DNA from: a virus
Taxonomy: Duplodnaviria > Caudoviricetes
Length of the DNA stretch: 64,000 nt
IMG/VR virus record: IMGVR_UViG_3300031949_001696
Strand: one strand, 5' to 3'
The position numbers and the translations under genes are program-made. Shown here in pieces: positions 6,678 through 64,000 of the stretch; position 1 is the first letter of the stretch, and each line of letters opens with the position of its first letter. Below the pieces are notes generated by a model that worked only from the letters and a program-made list of their open reading frames with translations, was not told the DNA's origin and ran no database searches.

Positions 6678-7265
6678 TCACGGATAGTGTCCCTCGATCC
6701 GTACTAGTTCGTTCGCGAAGATCCGCTCGCCGATGCAGTTGTCGCAGACAGGACTCGCGGGGGCCGTCGGCGCATTCTTCACGAAGCGGTACAAGGCGCA
6801 GTCGTAGCCGGACGATCCGTAGTGGCCCTTCACGAGCCACTCGCCGACCGTGATCGACGGTGGCTGTTCGTGCCGGTTCGGGGCGCTCTCAAATTTCTTG
6901 GCCGTCTCTTCGGTGGCTTGAAAGACCGAAGCAGTGCAGTCGGCACCCTGCGTTCGCGTCTCGAAGGGAACGACGGCACGGTGCCGATTGCCGCACCAGG
7001 CGCAGACGACGGGGCGCGGAAACTGCGGTGATACGCCGATGAGGTCGTCGACGGCGACGCCAATGCGCTCGCGTACGGCCTCGAACGTCGCGTCGACCGC
7101 GTTCCACTTGAGTGGTAGTGGAGGCACGCTGTCGCGCAGGTCGCCGGCAATCTCGCTCGCCCCGTCGCCCAGGCGCTGGATCTCCTCCAGCAGCCGATGG
7201 TGCTGGGGCTCCGTCAGTTTCGATCCGTCGATCATCACGAGGTAGATCATGATCAATCCGATCAT
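6678..7265 (-). CDS. hypothetical Cys-rich protein
   Basis: CAWC and VCDNC motifs; coupled to neighbours. Confidence 0.6.
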   Translation of the reverse strand: MIGLIMIYLVMIDGSKLTEPQHHRLLEEIQRLGDGASEIAGDLRDSVPPLPLKWNAVDATFEAVRERIGVAVDDLIGVSPQFPRPVVCAWCGNRHRAVVPFETRTQGADCTASVFQATEETAKKFESAPNRHEQPPSITVGEWLVKGHYGSSGYDCALYRFVKNAPTAPASPVCDNCIGERIFANELVRIEGHYP

Positions 7266-7615
7266 GCGTCGCGGAGGGTGCGCACGAGCGCGGTCGCGAA
7301 CTCCGTGGCGAGAAGCGAGTCGTCGGCGAGCACGAGTTTGCCGAGCGCGTCGCCGCATAGCTTCTCGATCCGCTCTCGGATGGGACCGGGGGCTCGAACT
7401 TGTTCGAACACGACCTCGCGCGCGACCTGCTGGATCGCGTCGTTGAACGCGTCTCGTAGCGGACTCGTGCGCGCGCCGTAGACGCCGTGACCCGAGGGTT
7501 TCTCTTCCAAGAGCGCGGCGATCGCGTTCTTGATCAGGTGCTCGCGCTTCTGGTCATCGAGCGACTTGTACATCGCCTCGATCACGCGCGCCTTCATCGC
7601 GGTGTCGTCCGTCAT
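7262..7615 (-). CDS. hypothetical protein
   Basis: Codon pattern and coupling. Confidence 0.6.
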   Translation of the reverse strand: MTDDTAMKARVIEAMYKSLDDQKREHLIKNAIAALLEEKPSGHGVYGARTSPLRDAFNDAIQQVAREVVFEQVRAPGPIRERIEKLCGDALGKLVLADDSLLATEFATALVRTLRDA

Positions 7616-8863: not shown

Positions 8864-9142
8864 TCATCCCGCCTTACGCCGAAGCGTGAACATTCCAGGT
8901 CTAAGCTGGACGCGCTCATAGTCCGGGTTCAGGTATTCGACGCACTTTCCACCACACGGCGGGCATAGCGTTTCATCCTGCGTTCTGGAGCTGATAAGCT
9001 CATCCGCGTTATACGAGGACGAGTGGAGGTAGCCGAATGTCTGCGTGCAGCAGCAACATTTTCCAACGCCTCCCCACCAGCCACCTTGCGGAAGTTGACT
9101 CCCGCCAATTGGGCGACCATGCGGGCATGCCACGACGCTCAT
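8864..9142 (-). CDS. cassette passenger, Cys-rich hypothetical protein
   Basis: CCCAAGGAG-N4-ATG; lower-GC codons. Confidence 0.6.
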   Translation of the reverse strand: MSVVACPHGRPIGGSQLPQGGWWGGVGKCCCCTQTFGYLHSSSYNADELISSRTQDETLCPPCGGKCVEYLNPDYERVQLRPGMFTLRRKAG

Positions 9143-9235
9143 GCGGCTCCTTGGGTGATAAGCGGAAGTTGACTCCCGCCAATTGGGCGACCATGCGGGC
9201 ATGCCACGACGCTCATGCGGCTCCTTGGGTGATAA
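9088..9235. repeat. exact 74-bp tandem duplication
   Basis: 9088-9161 equals 9162-9235; covers the inner TIR, RBS and gene start. Confidence 0.95.
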
Positions 9236-10187
9236 CCGGACAGTCATGGGTCGAAGCACGCGTTGCACATCTCGAAGCGCACCGTGCCGTCCTTGCGACG
9301 CACGGTCGCGCGTTCGTCAGCCAGGGCGCAGGTGCATGCACATTGTACAGCGCTCATCGATCTGCCCCCTTCGCGGCGGATCGCCGCGCTGCCAGCTCGT
9401 CGAGCGCGCGGACGAGCAGCGTGTCTCCCGACGTCGTCGAAGCGCGCAGGAAGCCCAGCTCGGCGTCGGTGAGGAAGTCCGTGTCCGCGTTCTCCGCGTG
9501 CTGGACGATCTCGGTCTTCGCGGCCTCCGATCGCGGCCGACCGTCGTCCTGGTCGCAGCCGTGCCCGCGATGCCAGTCGCGCCAGTGGCCCACGAACCAT
9601 GGCGGCGTGTGATCGGTGCAGGACTTGGACACCGCTTGCTCCGTCATCGAGGCCCCCTGACCACGGCTGCGTGGTTTTTCGCTCGGTCTTCTCGTCGTCG
9701 TCGCAAAAGATACGCGACGGCGCCGCTGCACGGCGGGCAGAGGTGTCCGTGAGCGTGCTGCGTGCAACCTGACTCCTCGGGCTCGGGCTCCGGTGCCCCG
9801 AAGATCATGCCAACAACAGAGGTGATGGCGGAGTCGACGACATGTTGTCGGCTCATCGAAAATTCGACGACATAGAGGATCTCCGCGCCACAGCCGACGC
9901 ACGCACTCTTGAGGCGTATTCCGTCCGCGTTCACGTCGACGACGGGTTGATCAGTTTTCAGCATGTAGTTGTCATCCGCGGTGCGCCAATTCCTTAGCAG
10001 CCATTACGTGCGTTCAGGATCTCGGCGCAGCGGGCGCGCGCGGCAAGCTTGGACTGCGATGGAAACGGCCGCCGTTCCCCGAGCGCGACTGAGATCGTGG
10101 TGTAGGTCAAGCCATGAAACGGCAACACTCGCCGCAGCTCGCGAAGCTGATCATCGGTGATCGTATCGGCGGTCAGCATTTGATCTC

Positions 10188-14778: not shown

Positions 14779-16895
14779 GCTGCTTCCAATGCGATCTGGA
14801 CATCTCGCATGTCTGCTATGCGGGCATGCCGAACGCCCGGTGGGGCTGGAACGACGAGGCGGTCGCCGCGCTTGAGGGGGCGCAGCGCCACGGTTTCATG
14901 CTGCCCGCGGAGCAGCTCCGCGCGCAGCGGCAGTCGGTGGCGAAGAAGCGGAGGACACGGTGACGGCCAAGAAGCCCCTGAAAAAAGAAGCGAAGAAATC
15001 GACGAGCAAGCGAGGTGCTGTCGAAACATCCGGGTTTGTCCAGATCCAGAGGCCGATCAACCTCCACCTCAACCTCAATCTCCGGTGCGCTCGTGATGTG
15101 CGCTCTTCCCTGGAGAGAGCGCTCGCCGGGCTAGCGCGTGACGGCGAGCCCCTGATCGCCACGCCCGCGCCCGGTCACTCCGGCGCGATGCAGCTCCGGC
15201 TCGACGCTTGTGACTTGAATGATTCGATCTATCTGTATCTGAGCCGGACACAAGCGAAGAGGCTCGTCGCCCGTCTCACAGCGCTGGAACTGAGCGTGTC
15301 GCGGTGACGGCCAAGGAGACCGTGAACAAGAAGACCAAGACGATGCTCGTCGAGCGCGATCGCACGCACTACGCGCGATCGTACGGCGATCCCGAGCGCG
15401 TTCGCGTCGAGGAGCCGCTCGCGGTCGATCTGGAATTGCCGTCGTCGTACGTCCGGGATCTGCTCGCCGCGCTCCGGCGCGTGCTCGCGGCGGGGGACGA
15501 GTTCGATCAGGCATTGATCGCGGTCGACGTGCCGATGCGCCTCTACCTCCGGCCCTTGCAGGTCGAGCAGCTCGTCGAGAGGCTCGCGGAGGTCACGCGA
15601 TGATTGTCATCGGCTGCGATTGCGGATGGAAGTCGGACGCTCCGAGTCGTCGTCAGGCCGAGGTCGCGATCGACGAGCATCGGCGCCTTCACTGCACACG
15701 GGAGCGGATCTGTACGATCTGTGCGGACGTCGCGCTCGGGGCGATGCGCGAGCTGGACGTGGGCAAGCCGGCCGTTTTCGTATGCGATGACTGCCACGAC
15801 GAGCATCCACGCAGCGGACGCTACGGCTTCGACGACGCCGGTGCGCCGAGCCGGGTTTCCGACGGGCGGACACCCAGGAGGGGGCCGTGAAGATCATCCG
15901 CGTCGACAACTTCGATCGAGAGCGTCTGGGTCTTTCGGATGATGTGCTGATCGCCGAGAGCGTTTCCGAGCATTACGTCGAGACGATGGTGTGGGCTTTG
16001 AACGCGAAGTTCTGTCCGAATCCAAACGACGAGTATCACTTCAAGGCGGTACCCGACAACTACGAGCTGCGGAAGTACGTGCCGTGAAGCTCCAGGCTCG
16101 CTGGATTGGCCCGCCGCCGCGGGTCGGCGACTACCTCATGTCCGAGGTCCGGCCGCGCTACGCGTACCGCATCGAGCGGGTGACCCTCGCGTTCCCGAAC
16201 GTCCACTGGGATCAGAAGGCCAAGGCGGAAGTCCGCCTGTTGAAGATCGTTGTCGATCGGATCGTGGCGAGTGGCGTTCCGCGCGACGCGCGGATCCATC
16301 CCTGGAAGTGGGATCGTCGCGAGGCGCGGGCGGCTTCGCAGAGGAGGCAGGCGTGACTCTCAAAGCAAGCGACGTGCTGTCGGCAAATTTCCGCGCATCC
16401 CGCGACCACGCGACGATCAAGGCGAACCGCGAGCTATTGCGAGCAGCGGCTGTCGAGGCGCACGCGACCCTCGCGATGGTGCAAGCGCTATCGCAGACGA
16501 ATCACGCATTGTGTGATCACGAAGGCTCCCGCGGCTACACCGATCGTAGTGGCGTTGCATGCACCGATTGCCCGCACTGCGGGGGTGATTAAATGAAGAA
16601 GATCCTGACCTGCGCCGAGCTAAAGGCGACATGCGACAAGCTCACGCCAGAGCAGCTCGTGCAGCCCGTCGTGTGGAGCGGCGACGAACGTGGCGGACAC
16701 GTGCGACACGTATGGATCTCCGAGGAAGATTGGATCGGAGAGCCGCGTGATCCCGAGACGTGGGTGCCGCGCAGCCACGTCTGTAGTGCAGTCGACGCTG
16801 ACGACTACAAGGATGCACGTGTGTGTCTGCCCGCGGGCACCGTTCACTTGTTGGTGGACTAGGCAGGGCTCAAACATGCTCCAAACACAAAGAAG

Positions 16896-16931
16896 ATCGT
16901 GCTCGCTTTTCGCGGGTACGTGGATTGAAAC
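16896..16931 (+). repeat. solitary type I-C-like CRISPR repeat
   Basis: ATCGTGCTCGCTTTTCGCGGGTACGTGGATTGAAAC: 9-bp hairpin followed by the I-C tail TGGATTGAAAC; intergenic. Confidence 0.8.
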
Positions 16932-16934
16932 ACC

Positions 16935-17357
16935 ATGAAGGCAAAGACGAAACAACGCACCACCAAGATCCGCGTTTTGGACGAGATCTGGCGCGTGCCG
17001 CGTGGCTTCGGCGCGGTGTACCGCCGCGTGCTCAAGGACCACTTCGCGCTGATCGCGGCCGGTGAACCCGGCAAGCTCATTTCCGAGGTGATCGATCTGC
17101 TCACGCTGGTCGGCTACGACGCGACCCGCGAGCAAGTCGCCGACTGGGATCTTCGCAAGCGTGTCGAGGCGGTGATCTACGCGGCGAACGAGTACGCGCG
17201 CGCATCGGACAACCCCGTACAGCGTTATCCGCGGCCGAGCTGGCTACCCGATCAGCCGTGGCAGGGACCGCCCGCGGACACGAGCCATATCAGGGCCGAT
17301 CTGCGCGGCGTGTTCGCCGGGCCGAGCGGGACACCGATCGCGGAGGCGTCGCGATGA
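16935..17357 (+). CDS. hypothetical protein directly after the solitary repeat
   Basis: ATG 3 nt after GAAAC; good codon pattern. Confidence 0.7.
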   Translation: MKAKTKQRTTKIRVLDEIWRVPRGFGAVYRRVLKDHFALIAAGEPGKLISEVIDLLTLVGYDATREQVADWDLRKRVEAVIYAANEYARASDNPVQRYPRPSWLPDQPWQGPPADTSHIRADLRGVFAGPSGTPIAEASR

Positions 17358-18356: not shown

Positions 18357-20742
18357 AGCAGACGCTGTGGCTCCCCGAGTGCAATCACTGCGGACGGCCG
18401 AAGGCGCCGCGCGGTCACGTTCCAGTCAAGGACTCCGAGGCCAAGGACTACTGCGCGCGCAGCTGTCTCGGGTACGAGGAGTGGCCTCATCCCAGCGAGC
18501 TGCGTGAGTGGCACGCTGCTAAGAAGCCGGATGCCGATGACGAGAGACCGTCTCTCCATCAGGCACGGCTCGGGCCGTGGGCACCCGAGGAGTTGAAGGT
18601 GCAGCTCGCCGCTATCGTCGACAGGCTCAAGGATAAGCGCTCCGTCTCGCCGCTCGATGTCATGCTCGAGCTGCTCAGCGGCGAGCTAGACGCTTTCGTC
18701 CTGTTCGCTCGGATGGGTCATCTCGATCCGCCGCGCGAGGACGGCAAGATCCCGATCGGAATCCTTCAGCGCAGGAGCGAAGATCCGGAGATCGACGCGC
18801 GGATCCGCGACACCGCGAAGACGTGGGCGGCGAAGCAGGAGAGTCGGTCGTGAGCACCTCTGCTCTTCGCACGTGTCCTGACTGTGGTCGGAGGTTCGCG
18901 ATGCTCTACATCTGCGAGCGTTGCGGTCGCTGCGACGAGCGAGATCTGCCGCGTGACGCCGACGCCGATCGTGCGGGATCATGCTGCAACGGCACGTGTG
19001 CCGCGCGCGACTGGCGTGCCGACGCGAATGCCGTCGCTCCACACATCACCGAGCAGCTGTGGATTCCCGACGTCCGCGAGGACGGCATTTACCTGATCGG
19101 CGCCGACGATCGCAGCGTCGTTCTGAAGATGGGCCGTCCCGATCGTGACAGCGATCTCCTCACGGCCGGCTACATCGCGGGACTCCAGGTGCGGCGACGG
19201 AAGGAAATGCCGTGAGCCTTCCGCCGCCGAAGTGCAAACAGCCCGACGCAATACTTCCGTCGCTCCCCTGCGATCGTCCGCCGCCTTGCGAGATTCACAA
19301 CAAGGAAGAAGCGGCGGCTGCGGCAGTCCGCAACGAGACCAATGATCTTCTCCAAAAGATCGTAGCGCGGCTCGACGAGCTGGTGCAGCTCCAGCGCAGC
19401 GCGATTCAACCAAAACCCCAACGACGAAAGAAGGCTGTGCGTGCTGCCTGAAGATCGCGTCCACGAGGCTGTGGCGAGTGCAGAGCCGGCGACTTTCCCC
19501 ACGTTCAATCGAGAGGCGCTCGCCGCGTTGCAAACGCGTGAGGTGCCGCGCGTGCGCGCGGCCGACTACTTCGATAAGAAGCCCGACGAGTCGCGCACTT
19601 CCGAAGAAGAGGCCGCGGCCGAACAGGAGATGGCTCGCTGGGACGCGTACCTGGCGAGGTTCGCCAAGCTCACCGACGCGCGGTGCCTGTGTTGCGGCAG
19701 CTCTCTGCGCTGTCCGCTCGGGCTGGGACTCATGGGCGGCTTCGAGTGGGGCCTCACGCACGGCGAGGGGCACTGCGCGAATTGCGGCTATCCGATGCGC
19801 GCGCATCACCGCGTGGAGGGCCTCGGCAAGATCCACAACCTGTTTCTGCCCTACCACCCGAGCGAGCTGTCGTTCGAGCCCAAAGAAGATCTGCGATGAC
19901 GGCGAAGTTCCACCCACTCACCGACGACGCGCTCGCCGGCCTCAGAGGCAGCGAGGTTCTGCTTGCAAACTATTACCGCGAGCTGCGCGAGCGCTATGTC
20001 GCCGAGATCGAAGAGCGGACCAAGCGAGATCGATCGGCGATCCTGCGCATGGCCGGCAACATCGCCGGGGGGTTCTGCGCGGATCCCGAGTTCGAGGCCG
20101 AGACATGGGAAGACATCGCCGTGAAAGCCGTGGCCATCGCGCGAGCGATCGTGGTCGAGGTGGATCGATGACTCTCAAATGCCCCAGGTGCGGTAGGGAG
20201 CTGGAGGTCGTGCGAAGTACGGCGGTGATCCCGCCCCACACCAAACCTCCGCGCTCCGGGTTCTTGGACAACGGGGCGATGGAGATCGACGGAGAGATCA
20301 TCGTGGTTACGCTCTACAAGACATGCCGGCTGAGCGGCGCTGAGTTCAGGAGGGTGCCGTGAAGAAGCTACCGAAGACGTTTCGAGGCGCCGTCGTCGCG
20401 CGCGGCCTGGGCATGAAGTCAGCACAGCTCGACACCCTGATCGAGAAGAAGGCGCTCGATCAGTTCGACGCGACCAAGGACACCTACCTCGTGGTCGAAG
20501 ACAAGGCGCTGGAGGACGACTTCGGTGTCGTGGTTCGCTGCTTCATGAGCGAGGCCGAGGCGCTTCGCTACGCGCGCGCGATGGCGTGCGGCAACGTCGA
20601 CCACCGTGTGCTTCGAGTCATCGCGCAGACGCTCGTACTACTGCGGCAAGATCGCCGGCTGGGTGGCGACCGATGGAAGTAGTCTCGCGGCGGTGTGCGA
20701 GAGACATGGCGAGCAGTTCCACATCAAGAGAGAGGCGTGATC

Positions 20743-61579: not shown

Positions 61580-64000
61580 ATTTCGGTCGTTAGCAGGCAT
61601 GTTCACGTTTTTTGCCGACGTGTCGATCCCAGCCCACGTCTCCGTCTCGGCCGTCAACCAAACCGAGCAAGTAGTCTCGGCCGTCAACCAACCGAGCAAG
61701 CACGATCACACGCCGACGAAACGCAACAACGGCGACGTGAGGCAGTCTCGGCCGTCAACCGACCGAGCAAGTACGATCACGTAGGCTGTCGGCGTGTCGG
61801 CGTGCAGCTCGGCGAGCTGCAACCGTCTCGGTCGTCAACCAACCGAGCAAGCACGATCACCTCAACCACGATCGCGTCAGCCGCGACGCGACGACGCGAC
61901 GCTAGTCTCGGTCGGTCGTCAACCAACCGAGCAAGTATCACCCGCCAAGGATCTGGCTGACCTCGCGCTCTGTTGGGAGTCTCGGTCGTCAACCAACCGA
62001 GCAAGCACGATCACTTTTCACTTTGGTCCTTGATCAATCACGAAGCTCTTTGTCAGAGTCTCGGTCGTCAACCAACCGAGCAAGCACGATCACACCAGGC
62101 TCCAGGCTCGGTGATCAACCTCAGCGAGCGCTCCACGTCTCGGTTGTCAACCAACCGAGCAAGTACGATCACAAGGGGCATGCGCCGCTCTCGCTCGAGC
62201 TGCTCAAGGTCTCGGTCGTCAACCAACCGAGCAAGTACGATCACAAGGGGCATGCGCCGCTCTCGCTCGAGCTGCTCAAGGTCTCGGTCGTCAACCAACC
62301 GAGCAAGTACGATCACCGTCTACCCTCGGTGCGTTGCTGCGCGACTTGCCGGTCTCGGTCGTCAACCAACCGAGCAAGTACGATCACATGACGTAACTGT
62401 GGACCCAACAACCTAGTCCGGGTCTCGGCCGTCAACCAACCGAGCAAGTACGATCACATCGCTCGTCGGGTGCTAACCTCCTAGCAAAGGGGAGTCTCGG
62501 TCGTCAACCAACCGAGCAAGTACGATCACACGATCCTCAAGGGCGACAACCGCGCCATGACGAAGTCTCGGTCGTCAACCAACCGAGCAAGTACGATCAC
62601 AGACCGAGGCTTCGTTGCAATTGCGGCGTGACCTCCGGTCTCGGTCGTCAAGTACGATCACCCATGTACCGCCCGCACGAGCACGGTGACGGCGAGGAGT
62701 TTTTCCACGTCTCGGTCGTCAACCAACCGAGCAAGTACGATCACGTTCCGTACGCGCTCTTGCGGTCAGCGGTGTCACTGTCTCGGTCGTCAACCAACCG
62801 AGCAAGTACGATCACGAGACCACTGCGTTTCCGCTCGTCGAGGATGCTTTCGTCTCGGTTGTCAACCAACCGAGCAAGTACGATCACTTTTGGTTTCCTC
62901 GTCACAGACTGCGTAGACACTGTCTCGGTCGTCAACCAACCGAGCAAGTACGATCACGCGCAGCGGTGGGGCGGGAAGCTGCCGTACGACGAGTCTCGGT
63001 CGTCAACCAACCGAGCAAGTACGATTACATGGGGCATGCGCCGCTCACAGCTGCGCGCGCTCGTCGAAGCGAAGAACTACGCCCTGTCTCGGTCGTCAAC
63101 CAACCGAGCAAGTACGATCACACAGGAGTCGGCCCAGTGTAGACCCTGGCGGATGGTCGTCTCGGTCGTCAACCAACCGAGCAAGTACGATCACACGCTC
63201 GCGAGCGCGTCAATCGCCGCCGAATGCGTGCAGGGTCTCGGTCGTCAACCAACCGAGCAAGTACGATCACGTGCCGCCTGATACGGGGCCCGCTCGTCGC
63301 GCTTGTCTCGGTCGTCAACCAACCGAGCAAGTACGATCACCCAAGTCCGCCACCTCCAACTGCCGCACGAGGTCCACGTCTCGGTCGTCAACCAACCGAG
63401 CAAGTACGATCACCAGCATCGTGGGCGTCGACGGCGCGACCGCTCACTGGTCTCGGTCGTCAACCAACCGAGCAAGTACGATCACGCTGGACTTGCGCGA
63501 TCCCGCCGTTCGTGTCCGCGAGTCTCGGTCGTCAACCAACCGAGCAAGTACGATCACCTGGCGGGCAGAGACACCTCTGCCTTGGAGGTCTGGTCTCGGT
63601 CGTCAACCAACCGAGCAAGTACGATCACCGCCGATGCCAAGCGCGCGAGCGACAGAACTCGTCGTGTCTCAGTCGTCAACCAACCGAGCAAGTACGATCA
63701 CCGCGCTCTGCCTGCTGCTGCGCAAGCGAATGACTGTGTCTCGGTCGTCAACCAACCGAGCAAGTACGATCACCTGGCGTCGGTCGGTGCCGCCGCCGAG
63801 GAACCGATCGAGTCTCGGTCGTCAACCAACCGAGCAAGTACGATCACTGCGCGAATACCAAACGCGCATGCACGCCCTGTGTGTGTCTCGGTCGTCAACC
63901 AACCGAGCAAGTACGATCACGCGTCGGTGCCTCGGGCGACGATCCGCGGCTCACCTTGTCTCGGTCGTCAACCAACCGAGCAAGTACGATCACCCGGGTG
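61580..64000 (-). CRISPR. CRISPR array, repeat GTGATCGTACTTGCTCGGTTGGTTGACGACCGAGAC (36 nt), continuing past the window end
   Basis: 33 clear repeat copies from 61644 to 63993 plus a very degenerate one at 61580-61606; spacers mostly 34-47 nt; degenerate copies cluster at low coordinates (trailer end). Confidence 0.98.

Follow-up and report, generated by a model that had tools for sequence, protein, structure and literature searches.

The principle of an RNA decoy directed against host CRISPR has already been described. Viral solitary repeat units (SRUs) act as Racrs, and the validated RacrIC1 follows a small acr gene at a distance of 11 nt and is bicistronic with it (PMC10651486). Thousands of such units are catalogued in the SRUFinder table, and in the part of the table consulted here those labelled I-C are very numerous (PMC10651486). 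Viral crlRNAs have been shown for type I-F, where the pseudo-spacers are mostly 17 to 21 nt long, and predicted for type I-C (bioRxiv 10.1101/2024.10.29.618823). Cas5d, for its part, reportedly reads the base of the repeat stem together with the 3′ overhang and cleaves at the stem base, giving an 11-nt 5′ tag (PMC5965381).

The unit considered here is a single type I-C-like repeat lying between two small phage genes (Table 1), in a stretch of 64,000 nt (IMG/VR record IMGVR_UViG_3300031949_001696) that was analysed as a whole and is called the window below. Its carrier is a 268-kb soil phage, a huge phage with CRISPR arrays of its own that are of a different repeat type.

A type I-C-like repeat in an operon of small phage genes

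The window, with a GC content of ∼63-64%, matches a 267,828-bp soil-metagenome contig in ENA (L003; source soil metagenome, ERZ27256953 / SRR9005073), whose small genes are tightly packed and mostly without a Pfam match. Of the sequencing runs listed for this DNA, none is of RNA, and the only one that contains it in full may be the source sample. A further 10.5-kb match, identical around the repeat unit, was found in one Logan assembly, which may stem from the same sample; BLAST of window positions 14 to 20 kb against phage GenBank gave no match. Two discrepancies between the window and L003 were seen: 178 nt that L003 has and the window lacks at window position ∼20636 (20631-20636), where the Logan contig also ends, and a 74-nt tandem repeat near 9165 (9088-9240) with an apparent difference in copy number. 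These differences are assembly or strain heterogeneity.

The repeat unit sits in a plus-strand operon of small genes, most of which overlap their neighbours by 4 nt and have a GGAGG-type ribosome-binding site ahead of them. Since a scan revealed no sigma-70-like promoter or terminator flanking the unit, the operon transcript most likely includes it, and it would thus be cotranscribed with these early genes. No k-mer longer than 7 nt is common to the 72-nt gap that houses the unit and the other gaps of the operon.

The upstream gene, P0002, belongs to a family with homologues in 17 phage clusters (57-84% identity), characterized by the invariant motif PVVWSGDERGG...EEDWIGE and a C terminus reading ...PAGTVHL(L/M)VD*. 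Its members turn up in many uncultured phages, repeatedly in early or accessory regions. Despite a well-defined AlphaFold model (pLDDT 88.7), P0002 matched nothing in Pfam, PHROG, PDB sequences or PDB folds, and the ESM Atlas gave unnamed viral clusters only; matching no solved structure or family, it is not a known Acr. The product of the downstream gene, P0001, likewise falls into no Pfam or PHROG family, and a search of IMG/VR gave no relatives; a homologue in the phage contig L005 is 89% identical and uses the same ATG start. P0001 lacks the GGAGG ribosome-binding site of its operon neighbours.

Table 1. Features of the repeat locus and the window's own CRISPR array, in window coordinates
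Feature	Position	Strand	Basis or remark
Upstream gene P0002, 89 aa	16593-16862	+	TAG stop at 16860-16862
Linker, 33 nt, 48% GC	16863-16895	+	putative tail, 16866-16875; 20-mer, 16876-16895
Possible 20-codon mini-ORF through the repeat	16876-16938	+	translation, junction table
Solitary type I-C-like repeat unit, 36 nt	16896-16931	+	covariance model, fold, identity to array repeats
Parts of the unit after its first 2 nt: 5′ arm; loop; 3′ arm; handle	16898-16906; 16907-16911; 16912-16920; 16921-16931	+	
Predicted Cas5d cleavage site at the 3′ stem base	16920-16921	+	inferred from the published rule
Downstream gene P0001, 140 aa	16935-17357	+	starts at ATG 16935
Window's own CRISPR array	61644-64000	+	different 36-nt repeat; tandem-repeat table, sequence

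Sequence and structure of the unit

An initial sequence-only reading of this DNA had described, with correct positions, the TAG stop of P0002, a presumed repeat tail, a 20-mer and a hairpin repeat with the exact 11-nt handle TGGATTGAAAC, which ends at 16931, 3 nt ahead of the ATG at 16935. It was equally right that the unit is unrelated to the window's own array, whose 36-nt repeat is a different sequence. The exact 12-mer GTGGATTGAAAC has one occurrence in the window.

A covariance model built from the repeats of 13 I-C arrays and run over the 64 kb on both strands gave the unit 25.4 bits (E = 8.3e-5), the sole significant match in the window, with the next match at 13.5 bits. Because the arrays had been found via a 20-mer taken from the unit, the model leans slightly towards it. 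As an independent estimate, the Markov probability of the 11-nt handle was multiplied by the frequency of hairpins of at least 7 bp ending at a given base, which puts the chance expectation for the handle preceded by such a stem at 1e-4 per window. The closest array repeat, found in a Betaproteobacteria MAG (L019) and two metagenome arrays (L037, L039), is identical at 29 of 32 positions, the unit having in addition a 4-nt insertion at the stem top or loop. Cas8c/Csd1, the signature of type I-C, is encoded in four of the five genomes with such repeats, the fifth being a 1.8-Mb MAG. Rfam returned nothing at gathering score for the whole window, and a permissive local scan gave only a weak match to CRISPR-DR9 (13.7 bits, E = 4.8). 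Judged by its sequence, the unit is in all likelihood a genuine descendant of an I-C repeat.

The array repeats of all 13 arrays follow the same plan with a 7-bp stem, as compared to 9 bp in the unit. The fold of the unit has the canonical I-C layout and an energy of −13.9 kcal/mol (z = −3.26); the array repeats range from −11 to −12.8 kcal/mol, and the antisense strand of the unit reaches −6.6 kcal/mol. Apart from the apical insertion, the unit differs from the array repeats at its first base and by two transitions in the 3′ arm, and as both transitions give G.U pairs, only the sense RNA folds well. That two of two stem changes preserve pairing is mild evidence for an RNA transcribed in the same sense as the operon. 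No change affects the stem base (C-G, G-C, U-A) or any part of the 3′ overhang, and hence the parts that Cas5d recognises have been retained.

The unit thus shows the repeat sequence and secondary structure of a defined subtype, as expected of an SRU. No full or partial repeat lies within 100 bp, where flank alignments are at random level and the model has no second match, and the unit is intergenic on a virus, in a 72-nt gap between genes that are conserved in relatives. Nor is it a CRISPR array or mini-array, which would have at least two repeats with spacers; in the parts of the window examined, short of a dedicated cas search, no I-C cas gene was noticed. To pass the published SRUFinder thresholds, a unit must match a known repeat with a coverage of 90% or more and a score of 41.1 bits or more; the best BLAST score of the unit, as compared with the 13 repeats only and not the full repeat library, is 40.1 bits at 62% coverage. 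Diverged units may therefore fall below published detection thresholds, and some RNA anti-CRISPR candidates are probably missing from the catalogue.

A putative insertion at a handle-like junction

Comparison with related phages shed light on the origin of the unit. In all eight relatives with readable gene maps, the next gene begins 2 to 9 nt past the stop codon of the P0002 homologue, as compared to 72 nt in the window, and none of the six relatives with readable DNA has an I-C-like repeat. The gap has a GC content of 51%, versus 63-64% for the window, which places it at the 2.5th percentile of 72-nt windows. Given the short, repeat-free gaps of the relatives, the 72-nt gap is most simply read as a lineage-specific insertion. 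The closest relatives, L005 and L010, carry the same downstream gene, and their junction reads GTGGATTGA(A/G)CATG; the codons for the conserved C-terminal Val-Asp, together with the TGA stop, already spell 9 to 10 bases of the I-C handle. In the window, handle-like junction sequence is found at the right end of the insert only, with a new GTGGAC-TAG at the left.

The sequence comparison is thus most simply explained by a recent insertion of the unit at a junction that was already handle-like, a point missing from the sequence-only reading. Parsimony favours a gain on this branch, although the unit might conceivably have been gained in the common ancestor and lost again via the GTGGA direct repeat. 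Microhomology may have guided the capture of the repeat. We also considered capture of a complete repeat-spacer unit by double crossover in a host array and rejected it, as the only handle-like bases at the left junction belong to codons required by the protein. With sister phages showing the empty site, the locus provides a clean, comparatively dated case of a phage apparently gaining a CRISPR-repeat mimic, and the handle-like target site hints at how such units get captured.

The neighbourhood also includes a variable accessory island of small early genes, located between conserved flanking genes (window 14960-16356, L005:1333-2756). It holds five small genes in the window; its counterpart in L005 has a 100-aa and a 376-aa gene. 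In three relatives, precomputed Pfam annotation places an AcrVA2-like gene one to four genes upstream of the P0002 homologue, the one in L005 being the 376-aa gene; this label was not reproduced with a local Pfam copy or a PDB search.

A candidate RNA decoy and alternative explanations

Our best reading of the unit is that of a Racr-type solitary repeat, an RNA decoy against host I-C, and we would give it an even chance of being correct. The sequence-only reading had offered three options (a decoy, a short guide for repression, or Cas5d-dependent processing of the downstream mRNA), among which the decoy appears to be the best supported: the parts read by Cas5d are kept, and the unit is solitary, intergenic, in sense orientation and borne by a phage. 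A plausible sequence of events would be as follows. In this phage lineage, an I-C-derived repeat would have inserted at the junction of two early genes that are coupled in translation. It would now be transcribed within the plus-strand operon RNA and is predicted to form the I-C repeat hairpin there, with the 11-nt handle on its 3′ side. In a host that, presumably, has a type I-C system, Cas5d would bind the unit and probably cut after G16920. The unit might then nucleate unproductive assemblies of Cas5, Cas7 and Cas8c, drawing Cas proteins off real crRNAs. The predicted cut would leave the 11-nt handle plus ACC before the AUG, i.e., a 14-nt leader. If Cas5d does cut, processing of the downstream mRNA, the third of the options above, would follow physically.

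Several observations weigh against the decoy. The unit is found in one phage lineage only, so there is neither conservation nor covariation across genomes. At 25 bits, it scores below the other solitary I-C repeats found (41-55 bits; the range given for L001, L013, L017 and L027 on the I-C model is 20-55 bits), it would fail the SRUFinder cut-offs when compared with the 13 repeats, and it has no flanking promoter or terminator. The upstream protein is no known Acr, and the AcrVA2-like label in the relatives was not reproduced. In JGI metagenome contigs, no I-C array with the 36-nt, 9-bp-stem variant was found; a broader pattern retrieved arrays and other solitary units there, not this unit. 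A loop-tolerant repeat pattern of the TCGTGCTC type was not found in IMG/VR. Finally, 422 I-C spacers from the fetched arrays had no protospacer in the window, the best match being 17 of 34 nt.

Some of the same observations would suit a neutral scar, in which illegitimate recombination with a host array or a mobile element at the GTGGATTGA microhomology left a harmless sequence with no role. The native L005/L010 junction, GTGGATTGA(A/G)C, offers a site for such recombination, and a scar would agree with the occurrence in a single lineage, the lack of a promoter of its own and a divergence exceeding that of other solitary I-C repeats. It would not by itself lead one to expect that no base of the 11-nt handle or of the stem base has changed, that both stem substitutions keep pairing, and this in the sense strand only, or that the insertion leaves the flanking genes whole and keeps the ATGA coupling arrangement. 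We therefore regard a neutral scar as rather unlikely, if a serious rival.

A different role is implied by the 20-mer ahead of the repeat. In a Cracr-type crRNA-like RNA, a handle at 16865-16875, the 20-nt pseudo-spacer and the hairpin would guide the host's own I-C Cascade to repress a target, for which a cas promoter or the promoter of a CRISPR-guarding toxin would be candidates. The 20-nt spacing fits, a complete hairpin, which Cas5d could hold, is present on the 3′ side, and viral crlRNAs have been described, with I-C ones predicted (bioRxiv 10.1101/2024.10.29.618823). The upstream side does not follow suit. The 10-mer GGGCTCAAAC (16866-16875), which the sequence-only reading took for a decayed repeat tail, agrees with the handle at 7 of 10 positions (7 of 11 for the full handle), and 0.13 such 10-mers are expected per 72 nt, which is chance level. 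No hairpin precedes it, the model shows no second or partial repeat, and 32% of random 100-nt chunks align to the repeat at least as well as its left flank does. Nothing thus marks the tail as meaningful, and the pseudo-repeat/pseudo-spacer/pseudo-repeat architecture of crlRNAs is lacking.

Nor did the 20-mer reveal a target. When it was searched against I-C loci (the sequence-only reading had proposed cas promoters), TTC-anchored seed matches in ∼226 kb equalled those of shuffled guides, and neither these loci nor four complete cas loci nor the window yielded a PAM-anchored target above the shuffled level. Equally, no match of at least 9 PAM-proximal bases, as used to define Cracrs, stood out from shuffled guides in the loci reached, which may not be those of the host. 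The same loci and the window hold no TTC-anchored target above shuffled guides for the 34 nt after the repeat, and neither the 20-mer nor the 33-nt linker has a match in the window or the fetched loci. An 18-mer of handle and pseudo-spacer had one chance match in IMG/VR, in an AT-rich, unrelated phage and with no adjoining repeat; the 20-mer lies beside a repeat on no other viral contig. The suggested short guide for repression is thus supported neither by its upstream handle nor by a target in the loci reached, and we consider a Cracr-type RNA improbable.

A slightly smaller chance is given to an RNA element that acts independently of Cas, its hairpin and mini-ORF serving mRNA stability or coupling, with the I-C likeness reflecting no more than the origin of the DNA. 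P0001 has no GGAGG, and because its counterparts in the relatives start 2 nt past the upstream stop codon, the insertion would have broken translational coupling. The mini-ORF (ATG at 16876 to TGA at 16938) overlaps the P0001 ATG at 16935 as ATGA, the arrangement seen at most junctions of the operon; it could restore coupling to P0001, or be a product of chance. By a rough estimate, such an arrangement arises by chance in 4-10% of cases, it is without comparative support, and a perfect 11-nt I-C handle would go unexplained by an element of this kind.

It is more doubtful still that the unit works as a switch sensing Cas5d or Cascade, whereby cleavage and Cas loading 3 nt before the AUG would alter translation of the 140-aa protein under active I-C. 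What speaks for this is geometry: on a 14-nt leader, Cas7 would polymerise over the start codon. Against it, the downstream sequence did not come in with the repeat, being ancestral. Of the other solitary I-C repeats, L038 is the one next to an ATG, and no ORF of at least 40 aa starts from that ATG. Lower again in our estimation is a version in which Cas cleavage and loading compete with the 20-codon coupling ORF, so that the locus would be a riboswitch-like CRISPR sensor rather than a simple decoy; if true, translation of the 140-aa protein would track active type I-C immunity in the cell. As for a chance resemblance to an I-C repeat, this is very unlikely.

Other solitary and paired I-C repeats

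Other solitary I-C repeats were met in viral, genomic and metagenome contigs (L001:2870-2900, minus strand; L013; L017; L027; L038; L042; L043; and L044, variously viral, MAG or metagenome). The L001 repeat lies between two large genes, just before a Shine-Dalgarno sequence and a GTG, and the L044 repeat has a long loop like that of the unit studied here. A separate case is L002:3123-3191 (IMGVR_UViG_3300001592_000756), where a full I-C repeat is located inside a 411-aa ORF that looks terminase-like by sequence alone. On either side of this repeat, 18 nt of phage sequence are present as an exact direct duplication, and the added unit of 51 nt is in frame, the repeat reading ...VAPHAGTWIET... 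in translation. Another I-C repeat, also solitary, lies 4 kb downstream (7244-7276). The L002 repeat could be the product of recombination with a host array, or an assembly artefact.

In addition, L025:948-1037, L040 and L041 have two-repeat I-C mini-arrays with spacers of ∼27 nt (L025) or ∼33-38 nt (L040 and L041). The spacer of L040 nearly repeats the sequence after the second repeat, and the first repeat of L041 is degenerate. These three loci are candidates for crlRNA- or Cracr-like units.

Comparison with known systems

Four described systems bear comparison with the unit. Like the mini-arrays borne by viruses (PMC10651486), it is of CRISPR origin and sits on a virus that lacks cas genes of the corresponding type; unlike them, it has no second repeat and no spacer matching a rival virus. 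To the canonical I-C repeats of L019, L037 and L039 it is tied by 29 of 32 positions, the fold and the 11-nt handle, from which it departs as a single copy with a 4-nt loop insertion and without spacers, leader or adjacent cas genes. With the Cracrs or viral crlRNAs of Liu et al., it shares a hairpin preceded by a stretch of ∼20 nt, the size class of pseudo-spacers; it lacks a credible upstream pseudo-repeat and, in the I-C loci examined, a PAM-proximal target of at least 9 nt.

The closest counterparts are RacrIC1 and the other viral SRUs. The unit differs from these in its 9-bp stem, which includes two G.U pairs, in an apical part that is longer by 4 nt, in the next ORF following after 3 nt, in an upstream ORF that is no known Acr, and in scoring below the SRUFinder cut-offs against the 13 repeats; moreover, its carrier is a 268-kb phage with different CRISPR arrays of its own. 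In common with them, it is a single I-C repeat mimic, phage-borne, intergenic and in sense orientation, with a hairpin and a complete handle (PMC10651486), and it comes directly after a small ORF with which it is apparently cotranscribed, having no promoter of its own. The unit thus leaves the known principle unchanged and, if our reading holds, adds a new example to it.
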